Notes: generated from the letters alone by a model not told the origin. DNA of 64,000 nt from Ignavibacteriota bacterium (GCA_963776275.1 CAVZMI010000005.1:1-64000), one strand, 5' to 3'; numbered from the stretch's first letter, positions 1-46,860 are shown. Program-made: numbers and translations.

Positions 1-345
1 AAGGTAGGAATGTTTCTTATCGATGATAATATATCCGAGTATATCCATTTGACTTTTGGCGCATTATTTTTTCTTTCATTGTCATTTAATTCGATGTACC
101 TCTTCACAAAGCGTGAACCGGGTGGTCTTAGTAAGGAAAAAAGGCGAAGAAATATTATATACCGTTTTTGCGGTTTCATTATGATCCTGACAATACTCTG
201 TATGATTATGTATACACTATTCTTGAGGGACACACCAATATCGAAAATATACCCGGTATTAATACTCGAATCTATTGCATTATTAGCGTTCGGTATTTCA
301 TGGCTGGTAAAAGGAAATACATTATTTAAAGATAAAAAGAATTAA
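1..345 (+). CDS. C-terminal part of an integral membrane protein (DUF998-like), truncated by window start
   Basis: Frame is open from base 1. Three hydrophobic segments, including IHLTFGALFFLSL, RNIIYRFCG and ESIALLAFGISWLVKG. Confidence 0.6.
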   Translation, partial: KVGMFLIDDNISEYIHLTFGALFFLSLSFNSMYLFTKREPGGLSKEKRRRNIIYRFCGFIMILTILCMIMYTLFLRDTPISKIYPVLILESIALLAFGISWLVKGNTLFKDKKN

Positions 346-430
346 TATGGTTTGTTAAAGAAATGGGCACTGCATTTAACGGCACAAAAAGGATTTATCA
401 ATCATGAATAAACAGACCTGTCCAAAATAG

Positions 431-716
431 ATATCGCACCCCTACAGGGTGAGAAGTAACTTTCTTTTGACCCGGAGTATCCAACCCTTCGGGAGTCCCA
501 CATACGATGTGGGACTCCAGCACTTTAGTGACAGGGTCTGAATGCAATGTAATTTTTAAATTTCGCAGAATGAATATGCTTTTAAAACAACCCCAACACT
601 AAAGTGCCATCATCCCGATTCTATCGGGATTCAGGGGGGGTGGGATATGTCCGCAAGGGGCGTAGCCCCTTGAATCTATAAGGAAGAACATCAAAAACCC
701 TGAAGGGGTGAGATAT
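431..716. repeat. REP-like composite inverted-repeat element
   Basis: 431-450 and 697-716 are an 18/20 inverted pair. Inner IR GCACTTTAGTG (520-530)/CACTAAAGTGC (597-607). Hairpins at 492-518, 612-630 and 656-670. Confidence 0.7.
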
Positions 717-901
717 TTCTCAAGGTGGATCATTAATCATATTTTCATTCTTGAATGATTCTTTATACCATGTCTTGGACAGCATACCGGGGCCTTCTAT
801 GTGATGCTCGCATCACCATGTCCAATACTTCATGTTTTCACCGGTTCTTCGATAAGTATTAATTTATTTTGGACAGCACTGTACCGAAAGGATTCTTAAT
901 C

Positions 902-2910
902 ATGAATAAAAAATACTACATAAGACTTACAAGCATTCTTTTACTGCTAACCTGCGCTCAGGGAAACATTTTTACGCAACCAAACCCTGATTACAATTTT
1001 CAAGGAGTTTCATTTCATCAAGTGACGATCAACGACCAATTCTGGCTGCCGCGTATCGAAATCAATCGCACTGTTACTATTCCCGTATCGTTCAGGAAAT
1101 GTGAAGAAACCGGACGAGTTGAAAATTTTATCCTCGCTTCGAAAAAGAGCGGCAAATTTCTTACCACTTTTCCTTTCGACGATACGGATATATATAAAAT
1201 TATCGAAGGCGCTTCCTTTTCAATGGCTGTTCATCCCGACCCTGCTCTCGATAAGTACGTAGATAGCCTCATCAACATTATAGCACAAGCACAGGAACCC
1301 GATGGATATTTATATACTGCACGAACAATAGACCCGCAGAACCCGCACGAATGGGCGGGCAAAGAACGCTGGGTGAAAGAATCGATGTCAAGCCATGAGC
1401 TTTATAACTCCGGTCATTTGTTTGAAGCTGCAGCAGCACATTACATGGCTACCGGAAAACGGAACCTTTTAAATATAGCACTGAAGAATGCGGATTTGTT
1501 GAATACTGTCTTTGGTCCCGGGAAACGAAATGATGCCCCCGGACACGAAATCGTTGAAATGGGCCTGGTACGGCTTTATCGCATTACAGGTGAAAAAAAA
1601 TATCTTGACCTTGCCAAATTTTTTATTGATTGCCGCGGCAAAAAGATCGACCCCAAGCGAGCCTACTTCCAGACCACGAACCCATAAACCAACAGGATGA
1701 AGCTGTAGGTCATGCTGTGAGGGCCGGATATTTCTATTCGGGTGTTGCCGATGTGGCCGCATTGACCGGAAATAAGGATTACATTCAGGCGATCGATAGA
1801 ATTTGGGATAATATGGTTTCGAAAAAGTTTTACATTACCGGCGGCATCGGCGCAGTACACGACGGCGAACGCTTTGGAGAAAACTACGAATTACCCAACC
1901 TTACCGCATACAATGAAACGTGTGCTGCAATAGCCAATGTCTATTGGAATTACCGTATGTTTCTTTTACACGGCGACTCCAAATACATAGACGTATTGGA
2001 ACGCAGTCTTTATAACAATGTAATCTCAGGTGTAGGACTGGACGGAAAAACATTTTTCTATGTGAATCCGCTGGCATGCGATGCTGAATTCAAATTTAAC
2101 CAGGAAGCACTAACCCGTCAGCCCTGGTTCGATTGTTCATGCTGTCCGACAAATATATGCCGTTTCCTTCCATCGATTCCCGGTTATGTCTACGCGCAGA
2201 AACAAAACAATCTTTATGTAAATCTATTTATCGGCAGTTCTGCAAACATCAGGCTCAACGACAATATTCCGGTTGAAATCAGTCAGGAAACCCGGTATCC
2301 ATGGGATGGTGCCGTGAAAATCAAAGTGAACCCGGCAAAGAAAGCTTTCTTCACCGTTAATCTCCGTATTCCCGGATGGATTCGTAACCAACCTGTCCCG
2401 GGTAATTTATACTCTTACATTTCGCCCATTAAAGAAACATTTTCAATTAAGGTGAATGGCAAAGATGCTGAATATAGAACCGAAAACGGTTATGTAGCAA
2501 TGAAACGCGAATGGGAACAGGGTGATATTATTGAATACGTGCTGCCGATGAATATTCATAGAGTATCGGCAAACAATGAAGTTTCTAACGATAGGGGAAA
2601 GATTGCTCTTGAGCGCGGACCTCTTGTTTATTGTCTGGAGGGTATTGATAACGATAGCCAGATTGAAAATATGATTCTCCCGGACAACGCAGAATTGTCG
2701 ACCTCATTTAGGATTGATAAATTTAATGGAGTCAGCACGATAACCGGCGAAGCCGTTGTATTTAAATCCTCGTCGGATAGTCTATCCATTCAGGGTGGTA
2801 AATATAAATTTACTGCAATCCCGTACTGCTTTTGGAACAACAGAGGCGTCAATGAAATGAAAGTATGGATTCCTCGCAAAGTTAATGCGATCATAATAAG
2901 TAAGGATTGA
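902..2910 (+). CDS. Glycoside hydrolase family 127 (beta-L-arabinofuranosidase-like), secreted; one frameshift near 1670
   Basis: Signal peptide from ATG 902. Motifs SHELYNSGH, PGHE, GHAVRA, YNETCAA and CSCCP. ORFs 869-1687 and 1630-2910 join as ...AYFQ|DHEP. Confidence 0.9.
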
Positions 2911-2942
2911 AGAAATTAACGTACGCTGACAGGACATATTAG

Positions 2943-3345
2943 CATGCCTCGACTGGCCTTCCGCCTACGTCCGCCAAGTGCGGACTTCGGCGGACAAGCG
3001 GGTGGGCTCGGCCCGAGATGCTCGGCATGATGTGGACACTTTTTAATCTTTAATAGACACGACAAAAAAGGGAATACGTCGGCCCGCAGTAAAGTTTACC
3101 CTGAGCACGCTGAAGGCGTGCCGAAGGGTACGACTCCCGCTAATTAAATGGCGGAGAGGTCGTCGAGCGGCTGGGGCTGAGCTAGTGGTGAGCCCCTCGA
3201 TATACTCGGGACAAGCTTGCTCGCCGTGAGTCTACCTGCCCCGAGTCTTGGTTCGAGCTTGCCTGCCGTGAGTCTATCGAACGGTCGAGAACTTATCGAG
3301 GGGTCGAACGGTCGAACCACTTGCCGAAGCCAGTCGAGGGCCGCT
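2943..3345. repeat. Cluster of nested short palindromic elements
   Basis: CATGCC-TCGA...CTC-GGCATG (2943-3029), ACCC-TGAG...CCGAA-GGGT (3098-3129), and a multiply nested stack at 3166-3345 (see findings). Confidence 0.8.
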
Positions 3346-3396
3346 AAATGTTTCTCGGATTCCGCCCGTCAGCTTCCAGGCAATGATAGGTTCAAC

Positions 3397-3438
3397 TTGA
3401 CTTTGTACATTTCAATGTATATATTGGTTATATACATT
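3397..3438 (+). promoter_or_regulatory. Sigma70-like promoter of the TA operon with overlapping operator inverted repeats
   Basis: TTGACT (3397-3402), 17-nt spacer, TATATT (3420-3425). Perfect IR AATGTATATA-N5-TATATACATT (3414-3438) overlaps the -10. Confidence 0.65.
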
Positions 3439-3454
3439 TTGACCATCGTCAACT

Positions 3455-3769
3455 ATGCAGCAATTTCTACAATTTCAGGGATTTGACTGGGACAAAGCGA
3501 ATCGGGACAAAAATTGGCTTTGCCACAAAGTGACATGGTGGGAATGTGAAGAGGTTTTTTTTAATCAGCCGCTCTATGTCCATATCGACAAGCGGCACTC
3601 GTTAACTGAAAGGCGTTTTTACGCACTTGGCAGAACGAATGGCTCACGTCTGCTTTTTATAGTATTCACGCAGCGTAAGGCAAGGATTCGTATTATCTCG
3701 GCACGTGATATGCACAGAAAAGAAAGGAAAGTATACCTTGAAAAAGCTCAAAGAGATTCCAAAGTTTAA
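3455..3769 (+). CDS. brnT: BrnT family type II toxin (ribonuclease)
   Basis: FDWDKAN..KNW..H, E.EEVF, RF.ALG.T and RIRIISAR.M.RKER motifs; overlaps the downstream antitoxin. Confidence 0.85.
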   Translation: MQQFLQFQGFDWDKANRDKNWLCHKVTWWECEEVFFNQPLYVHIDKRHSLTERRFYALGRTNGSRLLFIVFTQRKARIRIISARDMHRKERKVYLEKAQRDSKV

Positions 3770-4034
3770 ATCTCCGGTGGATGAAGAAAAATTCTGGTCC
3801 ATTCACGACTCCACCGAATACATAGACTATTCAAAAGTCGAGCTGGGTTTTTTCCCGGAACTCAAACCGTCCAGTAAAACAATTTCGATTCGCCTTCCGG
3901 AATCTTTGATCGAGGCAATTAGACTCTTAGCAAACAAGCAGGATGTCCCTTACCAATCAATGCTTAAGATACTATTAGCCGAAAAGGTTCGCGAATCCTT
4001 AAACCTTCATTCTCAAAAGAACAACGCTGCCTGA
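3738..4034 (+). CDS. BrnA/CopG-like ribbon-helix-helix antitoxin
   Basis: IPKFKS..EE.KFW..HDSTEY and KTISIRLP...A....VPYQSMLK. Likely TTG start at 3738 after AGGAAAG. Confidence 0.85.
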   Translation: MKKLKEIPKFKSPVDEEKFWSIHDSTEYIDYSKVELGFFPELKPSSKTISIRLPESLIEAIRLLANKQDVPYQSMLKILLAEKVRESLNLHSQKNNAA

Positions 4035-4164
4035 TCCCGCAAAGCGGGATGTCGGACGGAGGGGGGAATTGAATGAATGAAACCGATGAATCGGTCATAA
4101 CACCACGATTAATCGTGGTGCTAAAAAATGATACCAGCTACAAAGGATAATCGTTTAAACGATT
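4034..4164. repeat. Palindrome cluster (REP-like)
   Basis: ATCCCGC-AAA-GCGGGAT (4034-4050), ACCGAT-GA-ATCGGT (4082-4095), CACCACGATTAATCGTGGTG (4101-4120), AATCGTTTAAACGATT (4149-4164). Confidence 0.7.
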
Positions 4165-4188
4165 TACTTATTTCAATAGAAGCCTATT

Positions 4189-4449
4189 ATGAAATATAAT
4201 CTGCAGTTGAAATCCGTTTATCTTGATGCGGTCGAGAGCCAATTGCGCAATAATAATCCACCGGAAACCCGGCAGACGCTTGAACGATTGCGGGAGGAAG
4301 GATTAAGCGAGGATGACGCGAAGCTCCTGATCGCATCCGCAATCGCAGCCGAAAGTTATTTCATTCTAAAGTCCAGAACGGAATTCAATCTCGAGAGGTT
4401 TGTCCGTAATCTGAAACGGTTGCCGGATCAGTCGTTCGACAGCGAGTGA
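4189..4449 (+). CDS. Conserved small helical hypothetical protein
   Basis: 86 aa; VESQLR.NNPPETRQTLERL..EG.SE..AK pattern recalled from a widespread uncharacterised family. Confidence 0.7.
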   Translation: MKYNLQLKSVYLDAVESQLRNNNPPETRQTLERLREEGLSEDDAKLLIASAIAAESYFILKSRTEFNLERFVRNLKRLPDQSFDSE

Positions 4450-4895
4450 TATAATATGCGCCTCTTGCATTCGACCTGAATTTAGTCTAACCTCGCTTCA
4501 AGAACGTCTGTTGCGATAGCTGCTACGATGATCTATCTTCTTGCCTTTGCCTGGATGCCGGATACAAAGCAAAATCAAAATACTGGCGATAAGAAGTCCC
4601 ACAAGAGACAAATCAAAGAATTCAGCCGAAGATGTAAAATCAGGCGATCTAAATCTACGATAAAAAGTAAAATTCTATGGATAGAGTGAATCATCAATCC
4701 TGACTACTTTTGCAGAATTTAACTTGCTTTTTTTCTCGTTACTACTTACGTTCTACTAACATACACCGGTGAACTATTCGTCTATATTTTTTTAGGCGAA
4801 ATAATATTCGTGAAGAAAATATAGATAGTAAAAACACACATACTTCTTAAACGCCACTCGAGAAATTCCATTTTTGGTTTTTCAGGATAGGTTTA

Positions 4896-17605: not shown

Positions 17606-18565
17606 ATGTTTCGAAAAATTATTACAGTTACTTTAAATACTTCAATCGATGTTATAATTGAAGTCCCGCAATTTACCGATAATGCCGTACTCGATGCAGA
17701 ATCGTATACCAGAATTGCAGCAGGGAAAGGAATCAATGTCGCGCATGCGCTTGCAGCGTTGGGCGAGAAGGTTCTGGCTATGGGAATCGTCGGCAAAAAG
17801 TCGAAAAAAGACTTTGCCTCCGTCGCATCCCGGCGAATACAAACAAGTTTCGTCTATACAGAAGGATCAACCCGTAGGAATACAACCGTTATACAGAAAC
17901 AGAATGGAGCTACAACACATATCCGCTCAAAAGGGTATCAGGTCAATGACGCGATTATCTCGCGTATAAGGCAAAAATTAAAAAGTGCGGTTGATAAAAA
18001 CGACATAGTCGTTTTTTGTGGAAGTCTCCCGCCTGGTGCAAAGGGTGGAGTGTACGGTGATTTCACTGAGCTTTGTGTCGCAAAAGGGGCGTTTACAGTG
18101 CTGGATACATCCGGGATACCGCTTCTTGAAGCGATCGCAGCAAACCCGCAAATGATCAAGCTTAATCGTGCTGAGTTTCAGACAACCTTTGGTGTAAGTA
18201 GTTGTGATGATGAGCAAGTTATGCTTAATCGAATGAATGTGTTGGTGAATAACGGTATTTCGTATGTATCGGTAACGCTCGGTTCAGATGGTGTCATTGT
18301 AATAAAGGAAAATGAGAATGCTGCAATGAAGGTAAGTATAGATTTGGGTCCTGAATACGCAAATCGGAAAGTAGTAGGATCGGGTGATGCATCACTTGCG
18401 GGATTTGTCTACGGGATAAAGAAAAAGCTGCCATACAATGAAATGGTACGGTGGGGAGTAGCGTGCGGCGCGGCGAATGTGTTGTCGAAAATTCCGGGTT
18501 ACATCAATATTAAGGATGTAGAACGGCTGATGAAACGGGTGAGGCTAGAGTATATACAATTTTAG
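17606..18565 (+). CDS. 1-phosphofructokinase-family (PfkB) hexose kinase
   Basis: TVTLNTSID, AGKGINVA, GSLPPG, LDTSG and VGSGDA motifs. Confidence 0.9.
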   Translation: MFRKIITVTLNTSIDVIIEVPQFTDNAVLDAESYTRIAAGKGINVAHALAALGEKVLAMGIVGKKSKKDFASVASRRIQTSFVYTEGSTRRNTTVIQKQNGATTHIRSKGYQVNDAIISRIRQKLKSAVDKNDIVVFCGSLPPGAKGGVYGDFTELCVAKGAFTVLDTSGIPLLEAIAANPQMIKLNRAEFQTTFGVSSCDDEQVMLNRMNVLVNNGISYVSVTLGSDGVIVIKENENAAMKVSIDLGPEYANRKVVGSGDASLAGFVYGIKKKLPYNEMVRWGVACGAANVLSKIPGYINIKDVERLMKRVRLEYIQF

Positions 18566-18610
18566 GTAGAGCAGGCTTGTGGTGAGCTTGTCGAACCACT
18601 GCTCTACCTA
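18563..18610. repeat. GTAG-type REP-like hairpin with a TGAG/TCGAA element in its loop
   Basis: TAGGTAGAGCAG (18563-18574)/CTGCTCTACCTA (18599-18610) enclose GTGG-TGAG-CTTG-TCGAA-CCAC (18579-18599). Confidence 0.75.
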
Positions 18611-18641
18611 CATTGTGTGCAGTAACAGGAGGGCAACTCCA

Positions 18642-43294: not shown

Positions 43295-46200
43295 ATGTAT
43301 CTCTCGAAGCTCGAAATCGTCGGATTCAAATCATTTGCCAACAAGACCGCGATGCGATTCGACGCAGGAATAACAGCTATTGTCGGTCCGAATGGTTGCG
43401 GCAAAACGAATGTTGTGGACGCAATACGCTGGGCATTGGGTGAACAAAAAGTTACGACGCTGCGAAGCGATAAAATGGAAGACGTAATTTTTAACGGAAC
43501 ACGCAATCGCAAGCCGCTTGGAATGTCCGAAGTCTCGCTCTCAATAGAAAACACCAGGGGTATATTACCGACCGAATATTCAGAAGTAACGATATCGCGA
43601 AGATTGTTCAGGTCCGGCGAGAGCGAATATCTTATCAATATGACTCCATGCCGACTCAAAGATATAATCGATCTATTTATGGACACAGGTATGGGAGCTG
43701 ATGCCTATTCGGTCATCGAACTGAAAATGATAGAGGTGATTCTGAGCGATAAAACCGAAGAACGGCGGAAACTATTCGAAGAAGCAGCCGGCGTTACAAA
43801 ATATAAACAGCGGCGGAAATCAGCCTACAGAAAACTGGAGAGTGTGCAACAGGATTTACTCCGTGTCAATGATATTGTCAAAGAAGTCCAGAAGGCGGTC
43901 AACTCCCTTGAACGCCAGGCGAAGAAAGCGGAACAATATAACGAGATTGCCGCACGGTTAAGAACCCTTGAAATCGATCTTTTCGAGCATGAGTATGCTC
44001 AGCTCATCGCATTCACAAAACCCCTGCAGGAAAAACTTACAATTGCTCTTGATGATAAAAACCATATTGACGAAGAACTTTCACGGCAGGAGGCTCTTCA
44101 CGAGGTTCTGCAGGGTGAACTTGTCGCTCTTGAATCGAAACTTATCGATGCCCAGCGCGGGCTTTCACTGCAACTTGAACGTATTCGAAATGTCGAGCAG
44201 CGGAATCTAGTCGCCGCCGAGCAGGCGAAATCTCTAACTGCAAATATCAGCCGGTACGAACAGGAAAAGATAGATCTGACAAATCAACGGGTTCGTCTCA
44301 TCGATGAAAAACGGGAAACTCACAGGAAACGAGAGGCGGTGCATCAAGAGCTCAATGGCAGAGAGGCTGACTATACAACACGAAAAGAAGAACTCGACCG
44401 TTTCGAAGAAAAACTTCTGAGAAAGAAAACCGAGGTAAAAGCCGTTCATGAACCGGGCCATTGAATATGTGCATCGGATTAGCGAAAAAAAGGGGGAACA
44501 GGAAAGGCTGAAATCCCGGATCGAGAATATTAGGGGCCGCGTCGAACATCTTCAGGAAGAAAGTACCTATTATAAAGAAGATATAAAAGAAAAAAATGAG
44601 CTTGTCGGACGATTGAGCAATGAAGATCGTGAACTCCGGAAACAATATGCGGGTGCGCAGGTCCGGTTGAGCAGTATTGAAAATCTCCGCCAGCAGCTCA
44701 AAAATGAAATTGATGAGCTTCGTAATTCCGAATTGGAATTGCGGGCACAGATCGACAGGAAAACGTCGCGTATCGAATTCCTTCAGGGTCTGATCGAACG
44801 GCATGAAGGAATGACCGACGGTGCGAAGTATCTGCTGACATCGGCGGAATCGGACTCCGCAAGTCAAATCACCCTTGGTGATACGATTACGACCGATGAG
44901 CGTTACCGCATCGCTGTGGAGGCCGCCCTCGGCAATAGTACACATTTTCTCGTAGTGAATTCGGTTGAGGATGCATATCGCGGAATCCATATGCTGAAGC
45001 AAGTCAGGCAGGGGAAGGCGACGTTCATCTGCCTCGACAGGATTCCGGCCGTAAGATTGCAGAAAGTGCTTCCCGATAATCAGGGAGTCTATGGTTGGCT
45101 TGCCGATGTGATCACATGCGATCTGCAATATTATAATCTCCTTCACTATCTCCTCGAAGGGATCGTTCTTGTCGAAAATATTGACGTGGCGAAAGCCTGT
45201 CTCGATCAATCCACCGGTAGCAGTATTGCTGCGTGTGCGACACTCGACGGCGAAGTAATCAGTCACGATGGTGTCGTCAAAGGAGGAAGTCTTCGCCAGG
45301 ACGAAGGCGGACTCATCGGAACGAAATCACAGGTCAAGGAGTTGCAGCGCGAACTTAGCGCACTTCAGAAGAAACTCGGCGAAACACAGACTTCGATCGA
45401 AGAGAAACAACGACAGCAAAACGAAATCGACACCTCATCGAATGTCGGCGAAGTGAAGAATATAGAGAAAGAAATGACCGCTGTCGAGATGCGAATTGCC
45501 CAGGTAGAGTTTGAAAAAAAACGTGCCGGCGATTCGATCCGGCGCAATGAAGAAGAGTGTGATAAGCTTCAGCAGGAGATCGCAACTATAGAAACTCCTC
45601 TTTCGGAATTTACTCCGTTGATCAATCAGCTGGAGAAAGAACGATCGGAGGCCGAACGAAATCTTGGTGTCGCCCAGAATGAGCTTGAAAAACTGGAAGC
45701 GGACTGGGACAGGCATTCAAAAATTGTTAACGATCTCAGCGTTCAGATTGCAACACTCAAAGGAGAAGAGCGTAACCTGACCCGCGAGAGCGAACATGCC
45801 GATGAAACAATGAACGATATTCAAATGATGCTTGAAAAGCGTGATACTGATATCGACCTCGCCAGAAAAGAGATTCACCAGCGGGAAACCGAGCAGGAGA
45901 AGAATCTGCGAATTCTTAAGGATCTGAAGGCCGAATTTGAGGCCGGTGAAGGCAAACGTGACAATGTTCAGCGTGAGTACATCGCAAAAAAGGATGAAAT
46001 TCATTCCCTACAGATGAGAATCCGGGATGAGCGGCAACTGCACGATTCATCGATGAATAGTACACACGAACTGGAAATGAAAATTTCAGAGCTGACAATG
46101 AAGGCCGAACATCTGGTTCAACGGGCCAAGCAGGAGCTGGACGTTCGATCTCATCTTGAAAGTCTATCCGGAAGAAAAACAGTTCGATTTTACCGGTGTG

Positions 46201-46860
46201 AATGACGACATACGCGCATTGAAAGACAGACTCCGCTCGCTCGGCTCTGTCAACTTTGCTGCATTTGAAGAATATACGACGGAAAAAGAACGTTACGAAT
46301 TTCTTGAAGCCCAGCGGAGCGATCTGTGGGAAGCTGAGAAAACACTGCTCAATACAATCGAAGAGATCAATGCCACAGCGCAACAAAAATTTAACGACAC
46401 ATTTGCACAGATTAGGGAAAATTTCATTGCCATTTTTAAAGGATTATTTGAAGAAGGCGATGAATGCGATCTGAAACTCGAAGATCACATCGATCCGCTC
46501 GAAGCAAGGATTGAAATCACTGCGAAACCGAGAGGGAAACGACCGACTTCGATTGACCTGCTTTCCGGCGGTGAAAAGACACTGACGGCTATCGCCTTGT
46601 TATTCGCGATTTATCTGGTGAAGCCGAGTCCTTTCTGTATTCTCGATGAAGTGGATGCACCGCTTGATGATTCGAATATCGATCGATTCGTGCGCATTAT
46701 CAGACGGTTCAGCGATAACACACAGTTCATTATCGTAACGCACAATAAAAGGACAATGGAATCGGCAAACGCCATGTACGGTGTAACGATGGAAGAAGAA
46801 GGCGTATCGAAACTTGTATCGGTTCGATTTAAAGAAGGAGCGACAGTATCAGCAGAATAA
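43295..46860 (+). CDS. smc: Chromosome segregation protein SMC; frameshifts near 44452 and 46146
   Basis: GFKSFA, GPNGCGKTN, hinge (G.ATFI.LD, TLDGE), LSGGEK and ILDEVDA across three overlapping ORFs. Confidence 0.95.

Follow-up and report, generated by a model that had tools for sequence, protein, structure and literature searches.

Nested tagged hairpins in an Ignavibacteriota genome: a probable record of small REP-like repeats entering hairpin loops

Introduction

How does a short stretch of bacterial DNA come to hold six hairpins, each closed within the loop of another? The question is raised by positions 3166-3345 of a 64-kb stretch of the genome of an Ignavibacteriota bacterium (GCA_963776275.1, CAVZMI010000005.1:1-64000), referred to here as the window. 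A first-pass annotation, made from the sequence alone, read these positions as a Russian-doll stack in which an element of about 20 nucleotides (nt) had repeatedly entered the loops of its own kind, and it postulated an enzyme that recognises structure. We find that the Russian-doll insertion model is largely right, backed as it is by single-unit differences at orthologous loci, while no structure-specific enzyme was found. The stack has probably accumulated from very small DNA repeats of the repetitive extragenic palindrome (REP) kind that are mobile, or are at least copied and inserted. Below, G000 is the source genome (3.70 Mb), G001 is a sister species, and numbers prefixed with C are contigs.

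Results

The levels of the stack were found by reading the sequence and with a script that takes only perfectly complementary arms immediately flanking GAG...CGA. There are six perfectly nested units on the + strand, spanning 3175-3331 and having the form arm-(T)GAG-loop-(T/C)CGA(A)-arm'. The outermost clear unit (3175-3331, with halves at 3175-3181 and 3325-3331) reads GGC-TGAG / CCGAA-GCC. It encloses a second (3184-3321; 3184-3192 and 3313-3321; AGTGG-TGAG / TCGAA-CCACT) that sits between its parent's GAG and its parent's loop, and which itself holds in its loop a reversed unit on the - strand (3194-3210, CCC-GAG-TATA-TCGA-GGG) as well as the third level (3224-3311; 3224-3230 and 3305-3311; CCG-TGAG / TCGAA-CGG), whose 3' foot abuts the TCGA of its parent. 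The fourth level (3239-3303; 3239-3245 and 3297-3303; CCCC-GAG / TCGA-GGGG) has upstream of it the parental loop TCTA and a tag, CCTG. Within it lie the fifth (3251-3292; 3251-3257 and 3286-3292; GTTC-GAG / TCGA-GAAC) and finally the innermost monomer (3266-3284; 3266-3272 and 3278-3284; CCG-TGAG-TCTA-TCGAA-CGG), preceded by the parental loop CTTG and again a CCTG tag. Around the whole stack a 6-bp stem on the + strand, AGCGGC / GCCGCT (3166-3171 and 3340-3345), is complementary on direct reading. The levels and their coordinates, the reversed copy, the outer stem and an isolated monomer at 18579 are all as first annotated, and the arms, which were said to vary between levels and always to pair around a constant core, are perfect at each of the six levels.

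The depth of six was not approached by chance. Among 2000 dinucleotide-preserving shuffles the greatest depth was two (in 17 shuffles), and among 5000 permutations of the arms with the cores kept in place it was four (in 33 permutations). Genome-wide, the real core gave 7 loci with nests at least five deep, and 10 scrambled cores together gave one. Shuffled controls, which the first-pass annotation had set against its own reading, therefore do not reproduce the nested pairing, and the stack as an observation is real and statistically solid. An assembly artefact or a chance pattern would find some footing in the nature of G000, a draft metagenome-assembled genome (MAG) with 5.3% contamination whose stack is not spanned by any read set. 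It is opposed by the controls with shuffles and scrambled cores, as well as by the recurrence of the nested architecture at further loci and in genomes assembled independently (G001, G139 of the same phylum, and a Pseudomonadota MAG), and its probability is close to negligible.

Related loci do differ by single units. In G001, the flanks of the compared loci are 92-98% identical to those of G000. At ~157.78k of C15, G000 carries a 24-nt unit (CTTG + CCGC-GAG-CTCAG-TCGA-GTGG) between the CTTG and the TCGA of a CAC-TGAG...TCGAA-GTG monomer, and the orthologous monomer of G001 is empty. At ~151.2k of C20 three outer levels are common to both species; G001 has an extra GTGG-type unit of 20-23 nt in a GGTC loop that is bare in G000, and G000 has an extra 23-nt CCTG-CCCC...GGGG unit directly before its parent's TCGA. 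Whether these units were gained or lost, the boundaries of what differs are those of tag plus hairpin. Intermediate nesting states are also present among paralogs of the window's outer shell, which carry one and two inner levels. On C18 (196442-196557) the monomer GGC-TGAG-CTTG-TCGAA-GCC (196487-196505) has an empty loop, and on C13 of G001 a GTGG unit with an empty CTTG loop lies inside the GGC level.

Whole blocks differ as well. A complete five-level stack of G000 (136 nt; C20 106846-106972) takes the place of 5 nt of G001, a tandem array on C28 has six more 46-nt two-level units in G000 than in G001, and repeat-rich segments of 1.6 kb (C23) and 0.9 kb (C18) replace 41 and 19 nt, respectively. 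The window's own stack has no ortholog in G001 because window positions 2936-4175 are missing there: on G001 contig C9, 65415-68325 match window 1-2935 and 68328-68605 match 4176-4453. This 1.24-kb block contains all the repeats in and around the stack, together with BrnT (3455-3769) and a CopG-type antitoxin (3705-4034). The gain or loss of single units at orthologous loops (20-24 nt, three cases), taken with the differences in whole stacks and blocks, supports insertion into hairpin loops. The claim that the element enters loops of its own kind thus stands on these three differences, on the paralogs with fewer levels and on a regular parent-child spacing described below. The C23 segment (52388-53990), a strain-specific repeat cluster with one open reading frame (ORF) of 395 aa, resembles the window's segment of repeats, BrnT and CopG-type antitoxin.

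Such segments would also be expected if the hairpins were attC-like sites of cassette recombination, with the stack as the border of an inserted BrnT/BrnA cassette. At two of the four loci compared with G001 a repeat cluster does lie at one end of a gene-carrying strain-specific segment, namely the window (repeats plus BrnT/BrnA, 1.24 kb) and C23 (repeats plus the 395-aa ORF, 1.6 kb). However, at C20 the stack alone differs, the variable C18 segment consists of repeats only, and the G001 sites hold unrelated short filler and not an empty recombination site. No integrase was seen nearby, though no search was aimed at integrases. We consider cassette recombination very unlikely, and insertion of units and composites into hairpin loops remains the reading that we follow below.

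The units of the stack belong to a family that is spread over G000, as a genome-wide pattern search with nesting depth, suggested in the first-pass annotation, bears out. When arms of 4 nt or more and loops of 2-8 nt are allowed, 204 hairpins are counted, compared with 37-108 for 12 scrambled cores. With GC-rich arms and a 4-6-nt loop there are 111, where the 12 scrambled cores give 3-13, and 69 tight parent-child nestings stand against 0-1 for six control cores. The pairing is also seen in a test that does not presuppose it: 41 of the 52 GAGCTTGTCGA cores are flanked by at least four complementary bases, in 8 arm types (chance 1/256 each). Alignment of 69 distinct copies places a 4-nt tag just upstream of the arm, with the consensus bases of CTTG in 45, 41, 48 and 45 copies, and with exact tetranucleotides CTTG (13), CCTG (9), GCTC (8) and others. 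The loop is also CTTG, followed by T. The unit is therefore a 4-nt tag (CTTG or CCTG in G000) plus a hairpin of 19-21 nt, giving a total of 23-24 nt in place of the ~20 nt first estimated.

While the arms of these copies vary, the GA/GA core is constant. The base before GAG pairs with the base after CGA (T-A or C-G), and the last G of GAG could pair with the C of CGA, so that the sole unpaired constant part would be a tandem G.A/A.G; nearest-neighbour models leave this G.A/A.G core unpaired. The core had been described as constant and non-complementary, and of this the constancy stands, whereas the complementarity of its T-A and G-C positions would confine the mismatch to the tandem G.A/A.G. 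Copies are intergenic in 66 of 111 cases and lie at contig ends in 9 of 111, in a genome that is ~15% non-coding by a crude gene call. They have no orientation preference relative to neighbouring genes (21 co-directional and 23 anti-directional; within ORFs, 15 sense and 21 antisense), and neighbour pairs within 100 nt are inverted in 6 cases and in the same direction in 23.

Covarying arms might also be expected of a functional structured RNA, or of a transcript-stabilising or terminating hairpin array under selection, in which nesting would build a long rod with tandem G.A motifs. A tandem G.A beside a G-C pair is a common RNA motif. The fold z-scores of the region as RNA (-2.0 for the + strand and -2.4 for the - strand) lean in the same direction, though neither these nor the value for DNA (-1.1) is exceptional against shuffles in nearest-neighbour folding. 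Folding as DNA or RNA, a check proposed at the outset, accordingly does not single the region out, and because folding energy leaves it undistinguished the support for the stack is combinatorial and comparative, not energetic. An RNA function is opposed by the even orientation towards flanking genes, by the presence of both orientations inside one stack, by the absence of the whole block from the orthologous G001 site and by units that come and go singly. No Rfam covariance model matched window positions 2500-4000 better than E = 2.2. We regard selection for an RNA as highly improbable, and return to the repeats as mobile or copied units.

The positions that these units take in one another are regular. 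The spacers at tight parent-child junctions sum to 8 nt in 28 of 54 cases (21 of 44 distinct), the sum of a parental loop and a child tag of 4 nt each. The commonest junction (21 cases) runs from the parent's GAG through CTTG, the child's CYTG tag and the child's hairpin to the parent's TCGA, which directly abuts that hairpin; the children of this class have CCG, CCCC or CCC arms. Units with TGG or GTGG arms are placed between the parent's GAG and the parent's loop, and on our reading of the junction table GGTC units are placed after the first loop base. Every junction class is describable without target duplication.

The targets are not limited to the element's own kind, as had been assumed, since loops of unrelated GTAG-type REP hairpins are hit too. 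TGAG/CGAA units occupy the apex of such hairpins at C2 1063, at C2 7420 and at window 18564-18611, with leaders ACCT and GCTT. In the window the REP hairpin (GTAGGTAGAGCAG ..., - strand) has in its apex the monomer GTGG-TGAG-CTTG-TCGAA-CCAC (18579-18599, +) with leader GCTT. An empty GTAG-type REP exists at C23 156660, and therefore the tag travels with the unit and the target is the hairpin loop in general. A composite in which a GTGG unit holds a reversed CCC unit plus a CCG unit recurs on C5, C23, C31 and C8, and on C1 and C7 of G001. Since complete composites recur, and come or go, as blocks, the junctions are not all independent events.

How far does this unit extend beyond G000? The 13-mer TGAGCTTGTCGAA occurs 39 times in G000 and, in 41 genomes of the order, 125 times compared with 14 for the reversed control, with a count of at least four in nine of the 41. 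For the commonest nest junction, GAGCHTGCYTGCC, G000 has 24 matches compared with 0 for the control, and few of the 301 genomes searched in the phylum show clear enrichment (26/0 in G205, 14/0 in G139 and 11/0 in G297, as matches over control). G139 has 35 monomer cores against 0 in the control. Two further genomes (G150 and G112), considered as carriers without a Y1 transposase gene, were dropped because their monomer counts equalled those of the reversed-pattern control.

A 21-nt pattern, RYSC-TGAGCTTGTCGAA-GSRY, was scanned over one genome per species and gave at least 140 matches in at least 125 loci, compared with ~17 expected by chance across the collection. The locus titles name Cyanobacteria, Actinobacteria, Proteobacteria (many Sphingomonads among them), Nitrospirota, Planctomycetes, Dehalococcoidia, Acidobacteria, Bacteroidota, Verrucomicrobia and candidate-phyla bacteria. 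Among the 140 matches listed, arms are fully complementary in 83 (1/8 expected) and the tags include GTTC (42), TGTC (18), CCTC (10) and CGTC (8); an inverted pair is present at 30 of the 125 loci listed. Nesting in other phyla is shallow, with a depth of at least two at 20 of the 125 loci listed, compared with 2 of 125 for a control core, and a maximum of three. The pattern is also found on at least 130 viral-contig loci; the five viral records examined were fragments of 10-25% and contained no Y1 gene. Since nesting elsewhere is shallow and the enriched genomes are few, deep stacks appear to be peculiar to a few lineages, whereas the unit looks very widespread. Full-text literature searches with either orientation of the DNA core, and with short peptide read-outs, gave nothing relevant, searches on nested palindromic repeats and on Sphingomonad REPs gave no description of a TGAG/CGAA core, and the core strings are absent from the main text of RepRanger (PMC12306157).

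Discussion

The nested stack is, in our view, probably the product of small REP-kind repeats that move or are copied into hairpin loops. The unit hairpin would consist of a variable arm of 3-5 bp, a T-A or C-G pair, the tandem G.A/A.G, a G-C pair and a loop of ~4 nt (CTTG) followed by T. Tag and hairpin would be excised or copied at the base of the stem, 4 nt upstream and flush downstream, and the unit would then be joined into single-stranded DNA. Since a folded strand or cruciform stays single-stranded in its loop, existing hairpins would become targets. Units or ready-made composites could then enter the loops of their own kind or of unrelated REP hairpins without target duplication, and repeated insertions would give stacks that grow inwards. 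This scheme is built on the observed family, its unit boundaries, the loop as target, and the turnover of single units and whole stacks between the sister species. For the remaining steps, the acting form would be a folded single strand, and a protein would recognise the hairpin by its foot and its G.A clamp, whatever the sequence of the arms. A constant G.A/A.G beside a G-C pair, with paired arms that change freely, is what a shape-reading protein would preserve.

That the core stays constant while the arms change in Ignavibacteria-like genomes, Sphingomonads, Dehalococcoidia and viral contigs alike suggests a single mechanism of recognition with a very wide host range. It is conceivable, though on balance doubtful, that the ~23-nt G.A-clamped tagged hairpin is a minimal mobile DNA of many phyla and phages, moved by an as yet unrecognised structure-reading enzyme other than a REP-associated tyrosine transposase (RAYT), possibly a common host protein. 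If so, such an enzyme may also explain the "orphan" REPs of the CGTC type.

Several results weigh against movement of this kind. No enzyme was found: in agreement with the first-pass annotation, those of the window's 44 ORFs of at least 100 aa (plus BrnT) that were scanned against Pfam gave no transposase or nuclease family. G000 has nine Y1_Tnp matches, the best RAYT-like gene (C38 31286-31921) having GTAG REPs on its flanks and a TGAG/CGAA nest just upstream. This nest made RAYT a promising candidate, which was rejected when the link did not generalise to other loci. Co-location with RAYT, a check proposed in the first-pass annotation, did not hold up, in that a GC-rich unit is near only 3 of 30 RAYT-homolog loci of the order, two of them in G000, and none of the five Y1 loci in other carriers (G205, G139 and G297) is flanked by units. 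RAYT is present in 6 of the 9 repeat-rich genomes and in 11 of the other 32 among the 41 of the order, which is a loose link only. The RAYT genes of G000 appear to serve the different, GTAG-tagged REP family. A Pfam search for an IS91-type Y2 transposase gave no match, control genomes being equally silent. The orientation of the units is neutral to GC skew (17:18 and 16:11, from few elements, compared with 138:71 and 82:191 for genes), which is not as expected from a lagging-strand single-strand transposon. Single-unit hairpins are predicted to be weak, at -1.5 to -2.2 kcal/mol as DNA (z -0.1 to -0.8), and public reads from two DNA runs give short low-depth contig pieces, none of them across 3117-3429. 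Furthermore, with one sister genome compared and no outgroup, insertion and precise deletion are indistinguishable, and block copying of composites makes the independent insertions fewer than the junctions counted.

The lack of a linked enzyme and of strand bias would suit template switching or slippage in replication or repair, in which a stalled polymerase restarts on another copy through the shared CTTG and TCGA and no enzyme is needed. The tag sequence equals the loop motif, and the tag TGTC recurs at the loop-core junction CTTGTC in other phyla. Tandem copy number differs between the sister species, with six more 46-nt units at C28 in G000. Left halves alone (tag, arm, TGAG and loop start) run in tandem in a Dehalococcoidia MAG (L024) and in G139 (L249), each run ending in one complete hairpin, and these runs look like slippage between the tag and the identical loop motif. 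In the commonest junction, however, the parental CTTG and the child tag are both kept (8 nt), so no microhomology is consumed, and insertions are also found in REP apexes that have no CTTG. Recognition by a protein is indicated by the unpaired G.A/A.G, which is kept across phyla as the arms vary. Template switching as the source of the stack is therefore rather unlikely, and the insertion of tagged hairpins as discrete units remains the explanation that we prefer.

Which known repeats are nearest to these units? IS200/IS605 elements are recognised through hairpins, insert by a short fixed motif without target duplication and need single-stranded target DNA, and this last requirement would explain a preference for loops. 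Like them, the commonest G000 unit lies between the loop CTTG and TCGA without duplication, other unit types lying elsewhere in the 4-nt loop. Unlike them, the G000 unit is a single hairpin without two different ends, has no GC-skew orientation bias and is unlinked to Y1 genes.

The REP/REPIN-RAYT systems, as far as the available portions of three accounts describe them (PMC2817692, PMC3479197, PMC3733652), resemble the G000 units more broadly: both are short, GC-rich, imperfect hairpins with an unpaired 4-nt 5' tag, mostly extragenic and present in many copies, and both form mosaics and subfamilies whose two arms change in such a way that pairing is kept. The G000 tag, however, is CTTG or CCTG and not GTAG, GTAG hairpins being a separate family in G000; the stem has a constant tandem G.A, and the units are nested up to six deep where REPINs are inverted doublets. 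The REPtron arrangement, with RAYT flanked by the repeats, is not seen for these units, since the C38 RAYT is flanked by the separate GTAG REP family.

Closer still is one class of REPs. Di Nocera, De Gregorio and Rocco (2013; PMC3733652), in the part of their text available, divide REPs into GTAG- and CGTC-tagged super-families. The CGTC tag is often changed to TGTC or CCTC, loops are of 4-5 nt, and the repeats, found in several phyla, are without associated transposase genes, some REPs lying inside other palindromes. The CGTC class there has an 8-9-bp stem starting A-T, T-A, and a 3' tail CCA. Outside G000, 36 of the 140 TGAG/CGAA hairpins listed carry the tags TGTC (18), CCTC (10) or CGTC (8), compared with 42 of 140 for GTTC; the G000 loop (CTTG + T) fits, and there is no linked transposase gene. 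G000 units differ in their CTTG or CCTG tag, in arms that start CCCC, GTGG, CCG or GGTC, and in a 3' flank of T or TCGA with no CCA tail, in a comparison that uses the published text description of the class and not its four consensus sequences.

For the nesting itself the nearest likeness is eukaryotic. Smith and Lee (2009; PMC2670323), in the available extract, describe short palindromic repeats of Volvox carteri organelles that are often inserted within each other to give larger and more elaborate repeats; these too are hairpins with a constant 3-5-nt loop, spread between genes and without a known enzyme. They differ in being AT-rich, near-perfect palindromes of ~50 nt in organelles, with no tag and no G.A core, and in that extract the study has no unit-level comparison of orthologous sites. 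Tagged REPs, especially of the CGTC class, and the self-inserting Volvox palindromes are the closest known kinds, and the element is a variant within the REP-like tagged hairpins and not a separate category.

The locus and the sister comparisons define an exact unit (4-nt tag plus hairpin), an exact target (the hairpin loop, at defined positions) and the lack of target duplication. The multiplication of REP-like repeats thereby becomes testable with a synthetic loop target, which would bear on the CGTC class, for which the available portion of PMC3733652 gives no known transposase. The interest of the locus lies in this clear unit and target, in the depth of self-nesting and in a cross-phylum core with no enzyme in sight. 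The units also inflate intergenic regions, create spurious ORFs and break assemblies, as the copies at contig ends illustrate.

The surroundings of the stack and minor observations

Window 3166-3345 lies in a GC-rich patch (0.56-0.60, compared with ~0.40 around it) that is flanked by a split GH127 glycosidase gene (869-2910) and the BrnT/BrnA toxin-antitoxin pair (3455-4034). A possible seventh, outer level on the + strand is uncertain: its halves, CGGCCC-GAG / TCGA-GGGCCG with 6-nt arms, stand at 3009-3017 and 3335-3343, a span of 335 nt, and are only 45 nt apart in the C18 paralog (196442-196557). A separate + strand unit at 3097-3130 has a plain hairpin in its loop (TACCC-TGAG-[CACGC-TGAAG-GCGTG]-CCGAA-GGGTA), and a reversed unit (- strand) with 6-nt arms at 2943-3029, CATGCC-GAG ... 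CGA-GGCATG, encloses other GC-rich hairpins.

The GH127 beta-L-arabinofuranosidase gene consists of two ORFs that overlap (869-1687 and 1630-2910), one matching the first half of the Pfam catalytic domain and the other its second half, and the whole stretch is matched by G001 at 93%; the split is a frameshift, a pseudogene or a sequencing error. An SMC-like gene (43295-46205) is likewise present as two overlapping ORFs, 43295-44464 (SMC_N) and 44448-46205 (SMC hinge), and may be a second frameshift in the draft genome.

Other arrangements of the units were seen in G000. Head-to-tail arrays of 5-8 identical single units, with a period of 23-36 nt and with arms and loops that differ between arrays, lie at C4 18784-18896, C16 27835-27952, C21 6956-7220 and C8 2252-2487. 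A larger recurrent repeat (..AGCCAGGT(T/G)(A/G)CC-GAG ... TCGA-GG(T/C)(A/C)AC..) is a long-looped parent of small units and is found at C18 213979-214895, C5 107273, C18 57399, C20 138888 and 278381, and C23 523605; its copies at C18 213979-214895 are arranged in tandem, with units of ~126 nt, and this array is missing from G001.

A GTAG REP palindrome lies within the reading frame of the RAYT-like genes themselves, around residues 130-140, and is in frame in C38 31286-31921. In the RAYT pseudogene at C2 7205-7833 this internal REP is enlarged by a TGAG/CGAA unit, and several RAYT homologs of relatives come up as two separate matches, divided where the C38 and C2 genes carry it. Between C18 ~99.0-99.7k of G000 and C13 of G001 there are two more unit-sized differences in other GC-rich hairpins, of 35 nt and 28 nt, the latter being TCGCC-GAG-CGAAG-CGA-GGCGA with its leader, and G000 has there an extra copy of a tRNA-like segment. 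In two distant genomes (L067 and L025) the hairpin immediately adjoins, or may be part of, a tRNA-like sequence that has a T-arm and a CCA end.

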